A DNA stretch of 13,662 nt from the IMG/VR virus record IMGVR_UViG_2617271086_000006; one strand, 5' to 3'. The notes beneath the pieces were generated by a model that was not told where the DNA came from, searched no databases, and saw nothing but the letters and a program-made list of their open reading frames with translations. Source of the DNA: a virus (lineage: Duplodnaviria; Heunggongvirae; Uroviricota; Caudoviricetes). A program made the position numbers and the translations under genes. The first letter of the stretch is position 1. The number at the start of each line of letters is the position of its first letter. Shown here one piece after another: positions 1,782 through 11,967 of the stretch.

Positions 1782-3035
1782 ATGAAAGTCGAAATGAATA
1801 CTAAACTTTTGGCCTATTTAAACAATGAGTTACATGGAGTGTGGATAGATAGTGAAAATCGTAATATCCACATAATACTTAAATCAAGCCTTCCTATAAT
1901 TAAATCCGTCTGGTCAGGAGCACCTATCCACTTTTTGGTAGGTTTATCTACTAAAAATATACTAGTGATTGGGATGTTGATTGAAGATAATGTCGATAAT
2001 CCATTTTTACTAGCCTATCCACCAAGAGAGGCAGATGAAATTAAAGGGCTGGATTTGTTATTGTCAGGCGCTTATGATGGTATTCTATTATCATTTTTTG
2101 ACTCGCATACAATGCGTGTTATGGACCTGAAAATAAAAGTTTCGGAAAATTTACCGTGTGAATGTTTAAAAAAATTTTGTGCTAATTCATATTCTCTCAA
2201 TTCAGGATTTAGGGAAGGTAATGAAGCAATGGATGAATTCTGCAACAATGCTTTGACTGGTAACGAGAAAATAATTAGTCTGCCACTAAGTGTAATCGAT
2301 AAAAAATCTTACCTAGCAAGTGTTCATGAACCAAACGATACCGTATTAACATATGAATTTAGCGTCAGTGAAAACGGCTCTGAGGGATATGAGCAGGAAG
2401 CTCTTATATACCATGCTTTGCGGCAGGTCTTTTCACCGGAGGAAGTGTTTTTTTCTCCAGATATTATTGAGGGTAATAAAAAAAGAGAACTAGTTGATAT
2501 TCTTATTGTAGAAAATGACTATGTATTATCTATACAGTCTAAAGCATCATCTTTGATTGAAATGGGTTTAAAATCTCATGAAAAGCTTTGTAGCATGTAT
2601 AAGAAAAAAGCATTGCAAGGGATCGATCAGGTTAAAGGCGTTATCCCAATTCTAAATAATGATGTGGTTATTAATTATGACGGGAGGGAATGCTTAATAA
2701 AGCGCAGAAAGGGTATTTATCATTTAGTGATAATCTCAGATCTTGTTTTAGAGAAAGAAGGTGCTGAAAAGATTTATAACGAAATTAGCAACCTTAAAGA
2801 GTCAAAAGGGGCGAAAGTTTTAGTTATGAGCCTTGAAGGTCTTGTAAATTTTATAAGACTATCAAGATTAAATAAAAGAATGTTTTGGGCAATGCTGGAG
2901 ACTAAATACAAGTTCAGCATAAAAAACCGTACAATTTTAATTAGAGATATCGACTCTAGCCAAGAGAATAATCTACCATTACTTGCCACTGATCAATACC
3001 TATCACTTCTTCGAGGTACGGGAAAATTAAAATAA
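1782..3035 (+). CDS. AT-rich cargo (moron) protein of unknown function with a putative PD-(D/E)xK nuclease-like core; candidate defence or abortive-infection protein
   Basis: 417-aa ORF, visibly AT-rich compared with the roughly 50% GC flanks. Residues about 201-254 show helix EGYEQEALIYHALRQ, then strand ELVDILIV (Asp), then strand YVLSIQSK (Q-x-K), i.e. a D-x12-QxK arrangement as in Mrr/NERD-type PD-(D/E)xK folds. Start may be ATG 1782 or the in-frame ATG 1794. No confident family assignment. Confidence 0.7.
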   Translation: MKVEMNTKLLAYLNNELHGVWIDSENRNIHIILKSSLPIIKSVWSGAPIHFLVGLSTKNILVIGMLIEDNVDNPFLLAYPPREADEIKGLDLLLSGAYDGILLSFFDSHTMRVMDLKIKVSENLPCECLKKFCANSYSLNSGFREGNEAMDEFCNNALTGNEKIISLPLSVIDKKSYLASVHEPNDTVLTYEFSVSENGSEGYEQEALIYHALRQVFSPEEVFFSPDIIEGNKKRELVDILIVENDYVLSIQSKASSLIEMGLKSHEKLCSMYKKKALQGIDQVKGVIPILNNDVVINYDGRECLIKRRKGIYHLVIISDLVLEKEGAEKIYNEISNLKESKGAKVLVMSLEGLVNFIRLSRLNKRMFWAMLETKYKFSIKNRTILIRDIDSSQENNLPLLATDQYLSLLRGTGKLK

Positions 3036-3515: not shown

Positions 3516-3859
3516 TGTTGACCCTCCTGTGGTTGTGCAGTTGAAAGACTCATGCCCGCGCGTTGTTGCCAGACGACCCAGCCGAGAGCCATATCCCACG
3601 CCATGTACTCGTTATCACCGTTTTTTGCTCTCCGACGATCGACTGTTTTACCGAAACGCTTTTCCATAAATAATTCATAGGCTGCGCGTTCATCTGGCTC
3701 AACTTCCAGAGATGCCAGTGCAATCCGTGCCAGTTCTAAATCATCTTCAAGCTCAGCGCGAATCTCAGCGAATGCACTCTGTGTTAAGGCGAACTCAATG
3801 CTCTGCACTTTATTCCGTGCGCGCTCAAGCAGTGCATGGTAGTTAATTTCGGTTGTCAT
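3512..3859 (-). CDS. Hypothetical early-operon protein (115 aa)
   Basis: ORF with ATGA overlaps at both ends (3856-3859 and 3512-3515). GAGG/AGGGG Shine-Dalgarno-like sequence upstream. Acidic, helical-looking sequence with no recognised motif. Confidence 0.7.
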   Translation of the reverse strand: MTTEINYHALLERARNKVQSIEFALTQSAFAEIRAELEDDLELARIALASLEVEPDERAAYELFMEKRFGKTVDRRRAKNGDNEYMAWDMALGWVVWQQRAGMSLSTAQPQEGQQ

Positions 3860-4734
3860 ACCCCTACCTCTTCGAATTTCAATACCAATTGATCACCCCA
3901 GATTTCACATGACTCTGAACACGAGCCGGTATCGAATCGCCTGGCCTGTACCATCGCCTGATACAAATTTCTGTAGTCGCTGTTGGCAGACATTCTGGCA
4001 ATTCCGTCAAGCGTCAGGTGACCACGGTACATAACGTCTTTACCTGTTCTGCGATGACCATCCCTGACGTGTTTGCCTGTAACCAGCTCATTAAAAACTC
4101 GCATCAGACCAGGTTCGTCTTTACATGCAAGCCCCAGCTTTTGCGTTGACTTTTTGATGCAGAAAACACAGTTCCCGAGATGCTCCGGGATTTGCAAATC
4201 AAAAGGTTGTTTTCGCCACCACCGGATAACATCCGACTTATCAAAATCTGACAGTTCGGCAAGATACCGGACGCCCGATTTCGGTTTCAGCCTACGGGGT
4301 TCGTCTGCACGAATACCCAGCCATGTGATGTAATTACCTCGCCCGAAATGGTTATCGCAGTATTTCGTGAAAGGGATGAGTTTTAGCCTGTCAGTACAGA
4401 ACGCGCCGCCGATGTATGGCGTGCCGTACTTTTTAACCATGTCCATAAACGGTTTAAGTACCGGCATTCGCGTCTGAATATCCTTTGGCTCCCATTCTGT
4501 ATAACCATTTGGCTGCCCAAGCTCAGGATTGATATCGACCTGCAACACAGTTAGTGGTATGCCCCAGAACTTCACAACCTCCCGAATAAAGCGGTATGTC
4601 AGCGGATGTTCGCAACCGGTATCCATAAAGATGTAGCAGACGTTATTGCCAGCCTTTCTTTGTTCTTCCATCAGGTGAACAAGATATGCAGATGTTCTCC
4701 CGCCGGAAAAACTAACTACATGAGTTATGCACAT
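3856..4734 (-). CDS. Phosphoadenosine phosphosulfate (PAPS) reductase family protein (PP-loop ATP pyrophosphatase superfamily)
   Basis: 292-aa ORF. N-terminal PP-loop motif VVSFSGGRTS (SGGxxS). GGAG Shine-Dalgarno-like sequence 9 nt upstream. Start overlaps the upstream gene's stop by 10 nt. Confidence 0.85.
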   Translation of the reverse strand: MCITHVVSFSGGRTSAYLVHLMEEQRKAGNNVCYIFMDTGCEHPLTYRFIREVVKFWGIPLTVLQVDINPELGQPNGYTEWEPKDIQTRMPVLKPFMDMVKKYGTPYIGGAFCTDRLKLIPFTKYCDNHFGRGNYITWLGIRADEPRRLKPKSGVRYLAELSDFDKSDVIRWWRKQPFDLQIPEHLGNCVFCIKKSTQKLGLACKDEPGLMRVFNELVTGKHVRDGHRRTGKDVMYRGHLTLDGIARMSANSDYRNLYQAMVQARRFDTGSCSESCEIWGDQLVLKFEEVGV

Positions 4735-5261
4735 TTGCGTAACTCCGATAACTCGTTAAAACGTTCCATAAACATCCCGTAGGCATGTCCTGGTGCCAGT
4801 GGAATCACTTTGAACATCTCTGTTGCCGGGATACCTTCCAGTACAGGCCAGAAAGAGCCATCATCAAGCCCGAGATCGCGGCGTTCGGTTGCCAGCATAA
4901 TGAGATCGGCATATTTCACTGGCGTGCTCATAACAGGAGGTAACCCGTATTTCTCACGGATTACGGCGTCTATTTTTTCTTCCATCTGTTTATAGTCAGG
5001 AAGAAGGCGTTTCAGTGGCGCGGGGATGTCCTGACAATACGCTTCTGTTGCATCATGCATTAACGCTTCAAAAGCAAACTCCTCCGGAACCAGTTTGCTG
5101 CAAAGCACCGCATGTTGGGCGACGCTGTAGAAGTGTGAAAGATGACCGGCAAAGCGACAGATATTTGAAAGGGAAACTGCGATATCGTTAATCACGATGT
5201 CGTCTTTATTTATCCTGTCATAATAAAAATGCTTCCCGGAAAAAGTTTTAATAAATGACAT
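4725..5261 (-). CDS. yfdR: HD-domain phosphohydrolase, YfdR-like
   Basis: Trimmed to the internal Met (MSFIKTFSGKHFYYD...), giving 178 aa, which matches the length I recall for E. coli CPS-53 YfdR. HD signature (H...ALMHDATEAY). GTGGAG Shine-Dalgarno-like sequence 7 nt upstream of ATG 5261. Confidence 0.85.
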   Translation of the reverse strand: MSFIKTFSGKHFYYDRINKDDIVINDIAVSLSNICRFAGHLSHFYSVAQHAVLCSKLVPEEFAFEALMHDATEAYCQDIPAPLKRLLPDYKQMEEKIDAVIREKYGLPPVMSTPVKYADLIMLATERRDLGLDDGSFWPVLEGIPATEMFKVIPLAPGHAYGMFMERFNELSELRKCA

Positions 5262-5355
5262 TTTGTTCTCCACTTTATATGCGCTGCACCGCGCTGAATT
5301 TTGGTTAAAGAAAACCCTCGCCATCAGGCGATTATTGAGTTAATTACGTTTCCAT

Positions 5356-5389: not shown

Positions 5390-6214
5390 TCAGGCGGTGA
5401 AAGTACCAATAAAGGTTTCTACTTTGCTGTCTTTGAATTTTTCAACAAGCAGATCACGAAATTCGTTAGCCATTTCTTCCTGCACTGCTTCCAGCTGAAT
5501 AATGCGCAGAACCAGTACAGGGCGATCACCAGTGATAATGCTGAGGCGTAATTTAAACGGACGTTCTTTCAGGCCTTCAAACGGAACGCATTTAAACTCA
5601 AATGCTACTGGCATAATGTCTTTGGTTTTCGCTTCGACAGACTCCATCAGAGAGCGTTTGCCGCTGAAGTCATTGTCTTCAAAATCAGCGGTCTGGTTTG
5701 CTTCAATCGTGATTTTACGGACCGCCGCAGCCGCTTTTGTTGCCTGAATGGCGTCACCATTAGCATCAAAGCCCACAAGGTAGTCGGCCCAGTCTTCAAT
5801 CCATTCTGCCAGTGACTTCTGGGAGTTACGCTCGCCGTTAACAGACAACAGGGCAGAGAACGGTGCTGTCTTTTTCAGTTTGAGAGTGGCGGTGTTATCT
5901 GCGTGACCTGGTTCATCAATAGTACCCAGGTTAAGCACACTGACGGCTCGCATATTATCAGCATCGATAAAGCAGCGGGTGCCTTCATCTGCAAGATCTT
6001 TAGAATAACGGGTAAAGTCATCGATGCTGGCAGTGGAAAGCGCACCACGGAAACGGAAGCGATTTAAATTAAATTTTTCCAGATCATGAATGCGGAAATT
6101 CTCAGGCAATGCCACAGCATCGGCACCAATCTTACTGATAATTTCATTAACACCCTGAGCAGAAATAAGGGCATGGATTTGATTAATTGCGGTTGCGTCT
6201 AAGTTCTGAGACAT
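5390..6214 (-). CDS. yfdQ: YfdQ-like protein (DUF2303 family)
   Basis: 274-aa ORF, the same length I recall for CPS-53 YfdQ, in the conserved position between YfdP-like and YfdR-like genes. GAGGA Shine-Dalgarno-like sequence about 7 nt upstream of ATG 6214. Confidence 0.85.
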
Positions 6215-7387: not shown

Positions 7388-8062
7388 TTAGGCCTTTATT
7401 GTGTATCTTCTTGGTTTTCCCGAGAAAATCACTGTACCAATTATAGAGCAATTACCGTTAATCTTAATGTAAGGCTCAGGCCAGTTTGGGTTTAATGCTT
7501 TGAGATAACGCTGTGTTCCATCTTCTATCAACCGCTTGAAGGTGGTTTCGCCTGAATCGTGCATCAATGCAATAACGTCGTCACCGTGGCAGGCAGGGAC
7601 TTCAGGATCAACAAAAATCATGTCTCCCGGGCGGTACTCATCAATCATTGAATCACCAATCACCCGCAAGATATAAGTCATTTCGCCACAGGGTACAGGG
7701 CAGGGATAAGTTTCTGCTGTGCTCAAATCAACCTCAGAATAGCCAACTTCTTTCCATGCTCCGGCCTGTACCCATGATATGACAGGGACTAACGTTATTT
7801 GTTTGTTAGTGATTGAAACATCAGGTTTTTTTGTGATGTTCGTGGTCTGGTGTTCTTGATCAAGCCATCCGACAGGCAGGTCGAAACATTTTTCGATGTG
7901 CCTTGCCATGCTGTCACCGATATTTTTAGTAGCACCATCTCCCATAAACCTGCTGGTCTGGGTTGGCTCGCGATCAATCATGGTGGCAAAGGAAGAATTC
8001 CCGCCAACACCATCTCTCAGTTTTCTGGCGTTAGACCGCCGGATGTCATGGACTGTTTTCAT
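7388..8062 (-). CDS. cI: CI-type prophage repressor (N-terminal HTH, C-terminal S24 LexA-like autopeptidase)
   Basis: 224-aa ORF. Ala-Gly autocleavage site (VQAGAW), Ser nucleophile motif GDSM and Lys in TFKRL. Divergent from the cro-like gene. No Shine-Dalgarno sequence close to the ATG, so the mRNA may be leaderless as for lambda PRM. Confidence 0.9.
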   Translation of the reverse strand: MKTVHDIRRSNARKLRDGVGGNSSFATMIDREPTQTSRFMGDGATKNIGDSMARHIEKCFDLPVGWLDQEHQTTNITKKPDVSITNKQITLVPVISWVQAGAWKEVGYSEVDLSTAETYPCPVPCGEMTYILRVIGDSMIDEYRPGDMIFVDPEVPACHGDDVIALMHDSGETTFKRLIEDGTQRYLKALNPNWPEPYIKINGNCSIIGTVIFSGKPRRYTIKA

Positions 8063-8384: not shown

Positions 8385-8948
8385 ATGAGGCTAACCGTGG
8401 GTAAGCATCACTGGAAAGTAGAAAAACAGCCTGAGTGGTACGTGAAAGCTGTCAGAAAAACTATCGCGGCGTTGCCGGGGGGGTACGCTGAAGCTGCTGA
8501 GTGGCTAGATGTAACAGAGAACGCTTTATTCAACCGCCTTCGTGCAGATGGCGATCAGATTTTCCCGCTGGGATGGGCAATGATTTTACAGCGCGCGGCT
8601 GGCACTCACTACATTGCGGATGCTGTCGCACAGTCTGCTGGTGGGGTGTTTGTATCGCTTCCTGAAATTGAGGAAGTAGAGAACGCCGATATAAACCAGC
8701 GCCTGCTGGAAGTCATCGAACAGATCGGGAGTTACTCAAAGCAGATTCGTTCGGCAATCGAAGATGGGGTAGTGGAGCCACACGAGCAGACAGCAATTAA
8801 TGATGAGTTGTATCTGTCAATTTCGAAGCTCCAGGAGCATGCAGCACTGGTCTACAAAATCTTTTGCGCTCCAGAAAAGAGTGACGCCCGCGAGTGTGCA
8901 GCTCCGGGCGTCGTGGCGTTTTGTGTCTGTGGAGAAACTAACGCATGA
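8385..8948 (+). CDS. CII-like early regulatory protein (possibly YdaT family)
   Basis: 187-aa ORF immediately downstream of the cro-like gene. Family assignment is positional and from weak recollection. GTG 8397 with a GAGG Shine-Dalgarno-like sequence is an alternative start. Confidence 0.55.
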   Translation: MRLTVGKHHWKVEKQPEWYVKAVRKTIAALPGGYAEAAEWLDVTENALFNRLRADGDQIFPLGWAMILQRAAGTHYIADAVAQSAGGVFVSLPEIEEVENADINQRLLEVIEQIGSYSKQIRSAIEDGVVEPHEQTAINDELYLSISKLQEHAALVYKIFCAPEKSDARECAAPGVVAFCVCGETNA

Positions 8949-9544
8949 ACAGTTTAACGGCAAATAACCGTTTGTCGCAACAGCTGGTGGTCAGCGTCGC
9001 TGAACACCTGTTGTTACGGCATGAATGCAGATTACCAAATCTCCTGGCTGTAAGTAACCACAGAGAACTTTACCTGACTGTGGGGGGCGAGTTGTGCAGG
9101 AACTTAACCGCTGGTTTCGTGACGGAAGAGGACTTTATGTTCATGTTATTCGTTGGGAGCCAGAAACACAGCGCGTTATCTATCTTCGCAAAGACTACCC
9201 GCATGAGTGCTTTAGTCCTTTGTGGAAATTCAAGCGTGATTTTGTTGAGTGTGAAGGACCACCAGCACATTGATTCTGCCATTCCGGGACGTTACACTGT
9301 TCAGGCACCTTATAAAGCGGGTGCCGGGATTGGCGTCCTGGAATTGATCAAGGCGATATATGACGCGCCAGCGTCTTTTTTATCGTCCGCATTTGCTCAC
9401 ATCAAAGTTATGGTGGGCTGGGCGGGGGCATCGAAAGATGCGCCGGTTTCCTTGATCACCGGTTACGCCAACCCCGTTCAGTTCACCACCAGCGAAATTG
9501 GCGTTTCCGGTGGTGGAAGTGGAACAAACCAGCCCATGAACTGA
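8945..9544 (+). CDS. Hypothetical protein (199 aa)
   Basis: Long ORF coupled to the upstream gene by an ATGA overlap (8945-8948). No recognised motif. A shorter protein-like reading (about 58 aa from GTG 9094) exists in another frame. Confidence 0.5.
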   Translation: MNSLTANNRLSQQLVVSVAEHLLLRHECRLPNLLAVSNHRELYLTVGGELCRNLTAGFVTEEDFMFMLFVGSQKHSALSIFAKTTRMSALVLCGNSSVILLSVKDHQHIDSAIPGRYTVQAPYKAGAGIGVLELIKAIYDAPASFLSSAFAHIKVMVGWAGASKDAPVSLITGYANPVQFTTSEIGVSGGGSGTNQPMN

Positions 9545-9549
9545 AGGAA

Positions 9550-9816
9550 GTGGGCGATTTCACCGATCAAGGAGGCTGCCATCATGCTACTGTCCCAGCC
9601 CTCACTCGTCTGAATGATGAAGACTTACATAAACTCAGTTATGTAACAACTGCACTACGTGCTCTGCGCAAGGTAACTCTTTCGGATCCGCAGGCACATC
9701 AGGTTCTGGTAGAAACCCTTCTTAACTTGCAAGCTGAACGTATTCGTCTGGCGGATAAGGCTAATTTTCATATTCACCGTCTCCTGAATATCAGCGGAGG
9801 GCATCGTCATGCTTAA
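9550..9816 (+). CDS. Hypothetical protein (88 aa, GTG start)
   Basis: ORF with no in-frame ATG and a poorly spaced Shine-Dalgarno-like sequence. Helical-looking C-terminal half. Low confidence. Confidence 0.3.
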   Translation: MGDFTDQGGCHHATVPALTRLNDEDLHKLSYVTTALRALRKVTLSDPQAHQVLVETLLNLQAERIRLADKANFHIHRLLNISGGHRHA

Positions 9817-10045
9817 TCCGTTGCTCCTCAACATTTACCGTTTATTTCAGCGTAAAAAAATATCAACACCCACAGTTGGGCAGTGGTACACCACGCCAGC
9901 AGGGCATGTTCTACGTGTCAGCCTGGTTGACCGTGAATGTCAGAAGGTGATTTGTGAACCGCTGGGCCGTAATTACCGCGTCAGTATGCCGCTTATAGCC
10001 TTTCGCTCCGGAAAAAACATGAAGCATCTCGGAGGTGCAGCATGA
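9809..10045 (+). CDS. Hypothetical small protein (78 aa)
   Basis: ATG 9809 preceded by GGAGGG at 7 nt. ATGA overlap with the downstream initiator gene (10042-10045). Confidence 0.6.
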   Translation: MLNPLLLNIYRLFQRKKISTPTVGQWYTTPAGHVLRVSLVDRECQKVICEPLGRNYRVSMPLIAFRSGKNMKHLGGAA

Positions 10046-10860
10046 GTATGGAGCTGATGGTTAAAGCGATGAAAATTCGAGTGGGTAATCCATTGCGAAA
10101 ACTGGTTCTGATCAAGCTGGCTGATAATGCCAGCGATCAGGGTGAGTGCTGGCCCAGCTACCAGCATATTGCTGACCAGTGCGAGATTAGCAAACGTTCT
10201 GTGATGAATCATATTGCGGCCCTTTGTGAGTCCGGGCTGGTAAAAAAAGTCACCCGGAAAGGTGAAAAAGGTAACTCAAGTAATATCTATCTCCTTCATC
10301 TGGATGGTGCAGGAGATTCACTAGGGGGTAGTGCAAATAATTCACTATCTGGTGCAGCAAATTCACCAGGTAGTGCAGGAGTTGCACTAGGGGGTAGTGC
10401 AGGAGATTCACCCAGAACCAGTCACTCTTTTGAACCAGTCAAAGAACCAGTCAATGAACCAATAGCTGTTGGTGCATCTGCTGATGAGTCTGTGCGAGTT
10501 CGTTCAAACCGACCGGAATACTCTCCGGAGTTTGAGCAGGCATGGCTGGCATATCCCAAACGTGCTGGTGGCAATTCAAAATCTGCAGCCTTCAAAGCCT
10601 GGAAAGCCCGTTTGAATGAGGGGGTAAACCCCGAAACCATGCTGGAAGGTGTGAAACGCTATGCGGGCTGGGTATCTGCGATGGGTAACAGCGGCACACA
10701 ATTTGTGAAACAGGCTGTCACGTTCTTTGGTCCGGATCGTCATTTCGAAGAATCCTGGGAAGTTCCTGCGGTATCTGCAGCCAGACGTGAGGACCCGTAC
10801 TTCAAAGCCAGTTACGACAACGTGGACTACAGCCAGATCCCGGCAGGATTCAGGGGGTGA
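10042..10860 (+). CDS. Replication initiator, O-like (N-terminal winged-helix DNA-binding domain, iteron-encoded linker, C-terminal domain)
   Basis: 272-aa ORF with GGAGG 6 nt upstream. N-terminal HTH_36-like winged helix (LRKLVLIKLADNASDQGECWPSYQHIADQCEISKRSVMNHIAALCESGLVKK). The central Gly/Ser/Ala-rich linker is encoded by tandem DNA repeats, as for ori-lambda inside gene O. Confidence 0.8.
   Translation: MSMELMVKAMKIRVGNPLRKLVLIKLADNASDQGECWPSYQHIADQCEISKRSVMNHIAALCESGLVKKVTRKGEKGNSSNIYLLHLDGAGDSLGGSANNSLSGAANSPGSAGVALGGSAGDSPRTSHSFEPVKEPVNEPIAVGASADESVRVRSNRPEYSPEFEQAWLAYPKRAGGNSKSAAFKAWKARLNEGVNPETMLEGVKRYAGWVSAMGNSGTQFVKQAVTFFGPDRHFEESWEVPAVSAARREDPYFKASYDNVDYSQIPAGFRG
10303..10413. 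repeat. Iteron array (putative origin of replication) inside the O-like gene
   Basis: Four direct repeats of about 19 bp with consensus TTCAC-N8/9-GTGCA: 10317-10335, 10341-10359, 10362-10380 and 10383-10401, at a period of 21-24 bp. Confidence 0.6.
10415..10461. repeat. Tandem GAACCAGTCA decamer repeats next to the iterons
   Basis: GAACCAGTCA at 10415-10424, 10432-10441 and 10444-10453, plus a partial GAACCAA at 10456-10461. They encode EPVKEPVNEP in the initiator linker. Confidence 0.5.
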
Positions 10861-10862
10861 TC

Positions 10863-11357
10863 ATGAGTCTTTTGAATGAAGTTCAGAAATTCATTGAAGC
10901 CCATCCGGGGTGTACTTCCGGAGACATTGCGGATGCTTTTGCAGGTTACTCACGGCAGCGCGTTCTGCAGTCAGCAAGCAAGTTACGTCAGAGTGGGCGT
11001 GTGGCTCACCGTTGTGAAGGGGATACACGCAGACATTTTCCGCGCCAGATAAAGATATCGCCGGAGGCGGAACGGCAACCAGTTCGTGAAACCAGACCTG
11101 TGCGCAATTTCTATGTCGGCACTAACGACCCGCGGGAGATTTTATGCCTGACCCGCCAGGCTGAAGAACTGGAGTCCAGGGGCTTATACCGTCGTGCTGC
11201 AACGGTGTGGATGGCGGCATTCCGTGAAAGCCACTCCCAGCCAGAACGAAACAATTTTCTGGCGCGTCGTGAGCAGTGTTTACGAAAAGCAGCAAGCGCG
11301 CTGTATCGGGTGATGAGTGGTATCTGTCAGGGAATTACGTGGGGGCTTAATGAGTAA
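10863..11357 (+). CDS. Winged-helix / PerC-like regulatory protein (tentative)
   Basis: Trimmed from the GTG start at 10857 to ATG 10863 (MSLLNEVQKF...), 164 aa. The C-terminal segment AEELESRGLYRRAATVWMAAF resembles the PerC/Pch-family motif. Assignment is tentative. Confidence 0.55.
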   Translation: MSLLNEVQKFIEAHPGCTSGDIADAFAGYSRQRVLQSASKLRQSGRVAHRCEGDTRRHFPRQIKISPEAERQPVRETRPVRNFYVGTNDPREILCLTRQAEELESRGLYRRAATVWMAAFRESHSQPERNNFLARREQCLRKAASALYRVMSGICQGITWGLNE

Positions 11358-11967
11358 TAAATATTGCCAGGAGCTGGTGGAACTGCATCAGTGGCGCACG
11401 CCGGACAACATTTTCTGGGGAATTAACACCCTGTTTGGTCCGTTTGTTCTGGATCTGTTCACTGACGGTGATAACGCCAAATGCGCTGCGTATTACACGG
11501 CGGAAGACAACGCGCTGGCGCATGACTGGTCAGAACGCCTTGCGGAGCTTAAAGGTGCTGCCTTTGGAAATCCCCCATACAGCCGCGCCAGTCAGCATGA
11601 GGGGCAATACATCACCGGCATGCGTTACATCATGAAGCATGCCAGTGCCATGCGTGATAAGGGCGGGCGCTATGTTTTCCTGATCAAAGCTGCCACCAGC
11701 GAAGTGTGGTGGCCGGAAGATGCAGATCATATTGCTTTTATTCGCGGGCGTATTGGTTTTGAACTGCCTGCCTGGTTTATCCCGAAGGATGAGAAGCAGG
11801 TGCCGACAGGCGCTTTCTTCGCTGGTGCTATTGCTGTTTTCGACAAGACCTGGAAGGGACCGGCAATCAGCTATATCGGGCGCGATGAACTTGAGGCATG
11901 TGGTGAGGCGTTTCTGGCGCAGGTTCGCCTGCAGGCGGAAAAGCTGGTCAGGGAGATGGCGGCATGA
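11350..11967 (+). CDS. Phage Dam-like DNA N6-adenine methyltransferase
   Basis: Trimmed to ATG 11350 (MSNKYCQELVELHQW...), 205 aa. Catalytic motif GNPPYS. Overlaps the upstream gene by 8 nt and the downstream gene by ATGA. Confidence 0.85.
   Translation: MSNKYCQELVELHQWRTPDNIFWGINTLFGPFVLDLFTDGDNAKCAAYYTAEDNALAHDWSERLAELKGAAFGNPPYSRASQHEGQYITGMRYIMKHASAMRDKGGRYVFLIKAATSEVWWPEDADHIAFIRGRIGFELPAWFIPKDEKQVPTGAFFAGAIAVFDKTWKGPAISYIGRDELEACGEAFLAQVRLQAEKLVREMAA

Follow-up and report, generated by a model that had tools for sequence, protein, structure and literature searches.

The replication module considered here, an initiator gene followed by a homologue of yfdN, is of a kind known since phage SfV. 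The same genes in the same order are present in SfV (orf39-orf40), SfII, SfIV, mEp460, ST64B (sb42-sb43) and the prophage remnant CPS-53 of E. coli K-12 (yfdO-yfdN-yfdM), and they recur in the DNA analysed in this study, a stretch of 13,662 nucleotides from a Caudoviricetes virus record (IMGVR_UViG_2617271086_000006), which is called the window in the following and comprises the left arm and the early region of an SfV/CPS-53-type lambdoid prophage. In comparison with SfV, the window has a frameshifted yfdN 3' end and 36 bp that have moved from dam to an Ash-family gene; in comparison with CPS-53 of K-12, it is the K-12 initiator that has a different body and is truncated. The gene pair is ordinary and YfdN is a known and annotated protein; the useful result of the present analysis is an explanation of the missing helicase loader through a short C-terminal peptide that the initiator shares with DnaT. 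We propose that the region is a loader-less module whose initiator would recruit the DnaC-DnaB complex of the host by mimicry of DnaT, and whose yfdN would code for a regulator of the early operon. On the sequence comparisons given below, we estimate the probability of this reading at roughly 55%.

DnaT is the factor from which the PriA restart primosome receives the DnaB-DnaC complex. The host pair dnaT-dnaC resembles the window in that a tail follows the helical domain past a flexible stretch in both proteins, and the next gene is dnaC in the host as well as in phage relatives; the window, in contrast, has no dnaC beside its initiator. DnaT is reported to bind PriB through its N-terminal half (PMC4129139), whereas the N-terminus of the window initiator is predicted to be an origin-binding winged helix. 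In the Rac prophage (YdaU-YdaV-YdaW) an initiator with an IPPGFRG tail, a gene slot and a small winged-helix protein follow each other as in the window. However, in Rac and its relatives a dnaC-type gene lies between the initiator and the winged-helix gene, this slot being empty in the window, and the N-terminus of YdaU is a DUF1376 and not an HTH_36 domain. 'DnaC-type helicase loaders' have been described for the prophages Sp4, Sp10 and Sp12 of O157 Sakai, and partners of the lambda, DnaC and DnaB types have been catalogued (PMC2669165). The pairs lambda O-P and DopC-DopE share with the window an HTH_36-type origin-binding N-terminus, iterons within the gene (lambda) and a C-terminal part that sets the loading partner. 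Lambda O, however, contains Phg_2220_C and pairs with P, and DopC pairs with the P-like DopE and has no iterons, whereas the window initiator has iterons and no partner gene. DopC has been described as a combination of HTH_36 with a DnaT C-terminal motif, and DnaC is regarded as phage-derived (PMC5509034, Brezellec et al. 2017). The shared terminal peptide, its partition by loader type, or SfV-type modules as mimics of DnaT were not found in open-access text, where the matches were dominated by unrelated terms.

Absence of a helicase loader

The initiator gene (10042..10860, plus strand; 272 amino acids, homologue of SfV orf39) lacks the adjoining gene for a loader or helicase that accompanies lambda-O-like initiators; yfdN (10863..11357, plus strand) comes next instead. 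No match to IstB/DnaC, DnaB_C or Phage_lambda_P was obtained on any open reading frame (ORF) of the window, and tblastn searches of the window and of the complete 37-kb SfV genome with E. coli DnaC, YdaV, a 292-aa DnaC-like protein, a phage DnaB and a lambda-P homologue gave a best E-value of 0.38. The SfV genome has a single annotated replication protein. Profile and tblastn searches thus bear out the original prediction that the module has no recognisable loader.

The loader-less module is functional, since SfIV, which carries the same module genes as the window, is induced by UV light, was plaque-purified and propagated, and lysogenises (PMC3851460). A defective module, in which the prophage would depend on a co-resident prophage for its loader, could be suspected from the private lesions of the window (yfdN is frameshifted, the Ash-family gene has a 36-bp insertion with a stop codon as well as a 1-nt indel, and dam has lost 36 bp), and O157 offers a documented case of a prophage that depends on another (PMC2669165). 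Such a defect is nevertheless very unlikely, as the initiator is intact and 99-100% identical to the copies of SfV and of many viral contigs, and as plaque-forming phages with the same loader-less module have been isolated.

With a two-gene query (1316 bp), 2726 of 5426 complete E. coli genomes gave a megablast match and 841 held at least 80% of the query; depending on the coverage threshold, between roughly a sixth and roughly half of these genomes contain the pair. It is labelled 'helix-turn-helix domain-containing protein | yfdN: PerC family transcriptional regulator' in RefSeq, and YfdN was found in 56 phage records.

Likeness of the initiator C-terminus to DnaT

The initiator ends in a disordered tail (REDPYFKASYDNVDYSQIPAGFRG; 10786..10857, plus strand) with the end motif [IV]PxGFRG. 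Eight of its nine terminal residues (...SQIPAGFRG) are identical to those of E. coli DnaT (...SQIPPGFRG); over a longer stretch, ...VDYSQIPAGFRG of the window compares with ...VSEPDSQIPPGFRG or ...SEPDSQIPPGFRG of DnaT, the window tail having VDYS where DnaT has EPDS. Divergent DnaT orthologues keep PDxxIPxGFRG, and the window tail conforms to the peptide PDxx[IV]PxGFRG. The helical C-terminal domain upstream of the tail (aa 155-240; 10504..10761, plus strand), here termed Cdom, was aligned as a profile with the DnaT_C alignment by hhalign at a probability of 93% and P=3e-7, over only 29 columns. We consider Cdom to be probably related to the C-terminal domain of DnaT. Automatic annotation calls some of these phage proteins 'Primosomal protein I'. 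The original prediction had named a clear loader homology of the initiator C-terminus or of the 164-aa YfdN protein as a finding that would refute it, and this applies in part: the former does resemble DnaT, a helicase-loading factor, in its tail and its profile, and the latter shows no likeness to a loader.

In E. coli, dnaT lies directly upstream of dnaC with the junction GGA TTC AGA GGG stop. A TTC-AGR-GGG-stop junction is common to the initiator/yfdN pairs, the initiator/dnaC-type pairs and the dnaT/dnaC pair of the host. In the window this translational-coupling junction (10852..10865, plus strand) consists of an AGGGGG Shine-Dalgarno sequence, formed by the codons for Arg-Gly, the TGA stop codon, TC and the ATG of yfdN. 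DnaT (locus L337) and YdaU of Rac (locus L338) end in nearly the same 13 residues, VS[EL]PDS[QA]IPPGFRG, and each is followed by a DnaC-type gene with the same junction. There are hints in these sequences that dnaT-dnaC derives from a phage initiator-loader pair.

Distribution of the tail and type of the downstream gene

The loci counted here for tail and loader belong to prophages that are close relatives of each other, and the counts lack phylogenetic independence. Wherever an initiator lies directly upstream of YfdN, its end is ...DPYFKASYDNVDYSQIPAGFRG or a variant of it, and this applies to three bodies, namely that of the window, that of YfdO and the Phg_2220_C body of phage F1055. YfdO of K-12 has this tail as well, with YfdN and YfdM coming after it. 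About half of the sampled E. coli viral-contig loci with YfdN (L013, L019 and others) have a YfdO-type body that is 57-58% identical to the P-paired Salmonella initiator, with the last ~24 residues as in the window; the combination of a different body with the same last ~24 residues implies a mosaic joint just upstream of the tail.

Altogether the tail is found in at least four C-terminal domain contexts (Cdom, Phg_2220_C, YdaU and DnaT), and within the Cdom family [IV]PxGFRG is present in about a dozen divergent cluster representatives. YdaU of Rac, with the end ...VSLPDSAIPPGFRG (...SAIPPGFRG), is followed by YdaV. Tail-bearing initiators in viral contigs usually precede a 248-249-aa DnaC-type gene and, conversely, at 77 of 80 YdaV-type dnaC loci the upstream gene ends in IP[PS]GFRG. 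One YdaV homologue (L189) shares 48% identity with E. coli DnaC along its entire length, and the 292-aa Klebsiella-type DnaC-like protein (L003) is 32% identical in the ATPase part only. Among four initiator clusters that bear the tail, a DnaC-type gene follows in 78 of 79 cases of the L257 type (one other gene) and in two cases of the L177 type (again one other); the L181 type has it in 20 cases and lacks a recognised loader in three, where DUF977 or DUF1627 is found, and the L183 type has it in 10, with 36 cases directly followed by DUF977. Since the same initiator cluster occurs with and without dnaC, the phage-borne dnaC is facultative.

Initiators of Klebsiella, Raoultella and Citrobacter with 69-75% identity to that of the window share its folded C-terminal domain and differ in the last ~30 residues (Klebsiella-type end: ...SGFSEQDYGQSDCNW); they are followed by genes for a 292-297-aa DnaC-like protein and DnaB. 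The motif is present in none of 78 tail-less relatives of the window initiator, whose partners are a 297-aa DnaC-like protein plus DnaB in 56 cases (and in five further ones with DnaB not recognised), lambda-P in 10 and DnaB in one. The tail separates initiators that work with an E. coli-type DnaC, provided by the phage or presumably by the host, from those that use lambda-P or their own DnaC and DnaB.

Within the fetched loci, 401 of 12,601 ORFs end in the motif, 399 of them on the strand of the fetched gene, at about one per locus, and two on the opposite strand. The codons for I, P and G of the motif vary synonymously, which argues for selection at the level of the peptide; F-R-G is almost always encoded by TTC AGG GGG, with its rare AGG. 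That the tail represents only a recent shared DNA block, or only a Shine-Dalgarno sequence, was rejected as the sole cause, since the motif recurs in proteins that have diverged to 50% identity or less, next to different domains and in DnaT orthologues, and with synonymous codons.

Proposed mechanism

We assume that the initiator would bind the iterons through its N-terminal winged helix of the DnaD_N/HTH_36 type, and that its DnaT-like C-terminal domain, together with the tail, would recruit the DnaC-DnaB complex of the host to the opened origin, which is the part presumed for DnaT in the PriA primosome. With the host complex recruited by the initiator, a loader gene of the phage would not be needed. 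Loader-less phages would then rely on the essential DnaC of the host; relatives with the same tail often carry a close copy of dnaC, and others, the window among them, carry none. YfdN is translated by coupling from the initiator stop codon, as part of the early-right operon. The contact itself, of tail or Cdom with DnaC or DnaB, is hypothetical. The original prediction had offered as its second option that the initiator recruits the host helicase by another route, and the comparative evidence supports this better than a stand-in loader, with the tail as a specific and testable candidate for the element involved.

If the peptide is the contact to DnaC or DnaB, it would explain the replication of a large class of converting phages of Shigella, E. 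coli and Salmonella (SfV, SfII, SfIV, ST64B and Stx2c phages), provide a simple sequence rule for loader dependence and open a testable entry to the poorly understood DnaT step of replication restart. A more far-reaching idea is tentative, and we would place the odds somewhat against it: [IV]PxGFRG may be a portable docking motif for DnaC(-DnaB) that is common to DnaT and several unrelated phage initiator families, the host dnaT-dnaC pair may come from a phage pair of 'initiator C-terminal half plus dnaC', and SfV-type phages may mimic DnaT and possibly compete with restart.

Several observations weigh against recruitment by mimicry of DnaT. The Pfam DnaT model (PF17948) does not match the initiator at E<=0.1, the E-value of 0.07 obtained pairwise with hmmsearch is not significant, and the profile-profile match to DnaT_C is limited to the 29 columns mentioned. 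The counts of tail and loader do not represent independent events. In every loader-less case of the family a small winged-helix gene adjoins the initiator, so that a role for such proteins is compatible with this position. The conservation of FRG is partly a matter of nucleotides, because TTC AGG GGG doubles as the Shine-Dalgarno sequence of the next gene. Finally, recruitment of DnaB-DnaC by DnaT has been described as unclear, and the C-terminal domain of DnaT has been characterised as binding single-stranded DNA (PMC4129139). The last two points, together with the quite varied genes that follow the tail (dnaC-type, yfdN, DUF977), would fit an initiator that recruits DnaB without the help of its DnaT-like tail, e.g. 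by direct binding of DnaB and/or DnaA in the manner of plasmid Rep proteins, with the tail being kept for the handling of single-stranded DNA or for translational coupling. We consider such a tail-independent route unlikely, given that in the sampled loci any loader accompanying the tail resembles E. coli DnaC, that other tail-bearing loci have no loader, and that neither lambda-P nor a divergent DnaC plus DnaB was seen together with it, that the synonymous codons for I, P and G indicate selection beyond the Shine-Dalgarno sequence, and that dnaT-dnaC of the host has the same layout.

YfdN, the gene after the initiator

The second ORF codes for 166 amino acids from a GTG (10857) or for 164 from the ATG at 10863, which is located 5 nt past the AGGGGG Shine-Dalgarno sequence. 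The 164-aa protein, which contains GLYRRAATVW, matches Pfam PerC (PF06069) at aa 100-148 (nt 11154-11300) with 36.2 bits against a cut-off of 22.6 (E=7e-9), matches phrog_1324 (E=2e-65) and is 90% identical to YfdN of SfV. In the structure model, an N-terminal winged helix predicted with confidence is joined by a disordered linker to a C-terminal domain of three helices or helical hairpins. The description of the gene product as a winged helix combined with a PerC-family protein, as made in the original prediction, is borne out by the Pfam match and the model. PerC of enteropathogenic E. coli and PchA-E of enterohaemorrhagic E. coli are prophage-borne and have, like YfdN, a C-terminal helical domain with the GLYRRAATVW core; YfdN differs from them by the additional N-terminal winged helix of ~60 aa and by a conserved WYLSGNYVG end. 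A tblastn search of the phage collection, with just the PerC core as query, found no short Pch-type homologues. Strong activation of ler has been described for PchA-C only, and yfdN, as the PerC homologue of K-12, was deleted as a precaution from the MG1655 ler::lacZ reporter strain (PMC5931665). YfdN is present in the viable phages SfV, SfII, SfIV, mEp460 and ST64B, and a scan of species-representative genomes found it at only 5 loci.

A single G that is present in the closest relatives has been lost from the window at about 11283 (11283..11284, plus strand; compared with IAI39 and the 20 best matches in E. coli). As a consequence, the last ~22 codons of yfdN are out of frame and the end ...WYLSGNYVGA is lost. 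The WYLSGNYVG end is nearly invariant in the YfdN family.

YfdN has no sequence or fold likeness to known loaders (lambda P PF06992, DnaC/IstB AAA+ PF01695, DnaD/DnaB_2). A YfdN with 64% identity, in locus L009 of Salmonella, comes after an HTH_36 initiator and Phage_lambda_P and is followed by the same methylase/LexA-DBD/RusA/KilA-N block. Phage cdtI, which is reportedly viable, has kept the initiator (93% identical), and only the first 28 yfdN codons remain there, adjoining dam; the viral contigs L099, L154 and L166 have kept the initiator and its tail, and YfdN is absent. YfdN is neither mutually exclusive with known loaders nor indispensable in loader-less modules, and it was rejected as a substitute for a loader on account of both its co-occurrence with lambda-P and its absence from modules that keep the initiator. 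The suggestion that a PerC-like gene stands 'in place of' a loader is therefore not supported in the functional sense. YfdN opens the accessory block that comes next (YfdN-Dam-LexA_DBD-RusA-KilA-N) and is not part of the helicase-loading machinery; it adjoins the initiator because the loader slot is empty.

Other loader-less modules have small winged-helix genes of DUF977 or DUF1627 (YdaW) next to the initiator, and Rac has its DUF1627 protein, YdaW, downstream of the loader YdaV. Three unrelated small winged-helix families (YfdN/PerC, DUF977 and DUF1627/YdaW) are found in the slot after the loader position of lambdoid early operons (L183-L256, L338 2753-3313). One could imagine that YfdN, and by analogy DUF977 or DUF1627, is an unrecognised replication adaptor that docks on the initiator tail and brings the helicase, as YfdN adjoins initiators of three different bodies, in each case next to this tail and with translational coupling, as small winged-helix genes have the same position in other loader-less modules, and as non-homologous loaders of phage origin are known (VdhL1/2, PMC11087808). 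In view of YfdN following the lambda-P loader in L009 and YdaW following YdaV in Rac, such an adaptor is highly improbable. Phage cdtI, L099, L154 and L166 do without YfdN while retaining initiator and tail, in the host and in most lineages it is dnaC that follows this tail, the fold of a winged helix plus PerC helices has no likeness to known loaders, and the copy of the window is without the conserved C-terminal end.

To return to YfdN as a regulator, the domain composition indicates that it is most likely a transcription regulator of the early operon, consisting of a PerC domain with an added winged helix; that it is a regulatory cargo acting on virulence loci of the host, as the original prediction suggested, is conjectural. 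The result is a warning against taking the position of the gene as a sign of a role in replication.

The initiator and its putative internal origin

The 272-aa initiator is 99% identical to the product of SfV orf39 and matches Pfam HTH_36 at aa 17-67 (E=1.8e-11) and phrog_270 'replication initiation protein' (E=2e-88); a match to DnaD_N is weak. The N-terminal winged-helix DNA-binding domain of the lambda-O-like/HTH_36 class is present in the protein and corresponds to aa 1-85 (10042..10296, plus strand). Cdom is common to initiators with unrelated N-termini, with 4493 representative proteins at E<=0.001, and the Cdom hidden Markov model matches the initiators of P0254, P0276, L204 and L189 with E-values of about 1e-42. 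A search for related loci with P0277 yielded no relative. The AlphaFold2 model of Cdom reached a pLDDT (predicted local distance difference test) of only about 70, and PDB sequence searches with initiator and YfdN gave nothing meaningful.

Between the two domains, five iterons GTGCANNNNNTKCAC (10307..10411, plus strand; repeat families D1/D2) form a putative origin. They are spaced by 21-24 bp and account for six matches at five sites, one palindromic site being counted on both strands. The chance expectation is 0.06, none of 200 shuffles reached six matches, and no match was found elsewhere in the window. The iteron DNA codes for a disordered Gly/Ser-rich linker (aa 92-157), and the relatives P0123 and P0222 vary from the window initiator by whole repeat units. 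Iterons inside the initiator's own gene correspond to the arrangement in lambda O. Directly 3' of the five iterons, three copies of AGAACCAGTCA (10414..10453, plus strand; repeat family D3) constitute a second repeat element of the putative origin; the flanking 69 bp have 55% A+T and are not markedly AT-rich.

Other features of the window

The integrase gene is located at 386-1609, and a cI-like repressor is encoded on the minus strand (7388-8062) with cro alongside. The order of the early region is YfdR-/YfdQ-like genes, cI-like, cro, CII/CP76-like, Ash-family, phrog_1153, initiator and the YfdN-like ORF, and the early-right region is collinear with orf34 to orf44 of phage SfV. The small conserved gene of phrog_1153 (9809..10045, plus strand) is the homologue of SfV orf38, and its stop codon overlaps the initiator start. 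A phage Dam methyltransferase (11350..11967, plus strand; Pfam Dam E=4e-43; TIGR01712) lacks 36 bp at the 5' end of its gene.

The same 36 bp that are absent from dam (about 11385) are found as the segment GGAACAAACCAGCCCATGAACTGAAGGAAGTGGGCG at 9521-9556 in the Ash-family gene, to which they add an in-frame TGA. SfV, IAI39, yfdM of K-12 and about 120 other fetched loci carry the 36 bp in dam, and neither of the two junctions was found in any of the 5426 complete E. coli genomes. The flanks have a short stretch of microhomology (GGTGGAA...) in common. The arrangement resembles a private reciprocal relocation, be it a real event or an artefact. The 36-bp insert and a single-base indel at about 9575 split the Ash-family gene into the ORFs 8945-9544 and 9550-9816, and the indels at about 9575 and 11283 suggest either a decaying prophage or sequence errors.

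Adjoining the integrase, an ORF of 417 codons (1782-3035, plus strand) is located in an island of low GC content (32-37% GC) and has no Pfam or PADLOC match; it is probably a cargo, moron or defence gene. The early-left operon contains a gene for a 292-aa protein with a PAPS-reductase domain (3856-4734, minus strand), with an SspD-like match in PADLOC (E=3e-15). Homologues of the HD-domain protein YfdR (4725-5324) and of YfdQ (DUF2303; 5390-6214) are encoded on the minus strand. YfdR of K-12 is reported to bind DnaA, and overexpression of yfdQ-yfdT to inhibit chromosomal initiation (PMC4776307); the YfdR and YfdQ homologues may be relevant to the dealings of this phage family with the replication of its host.

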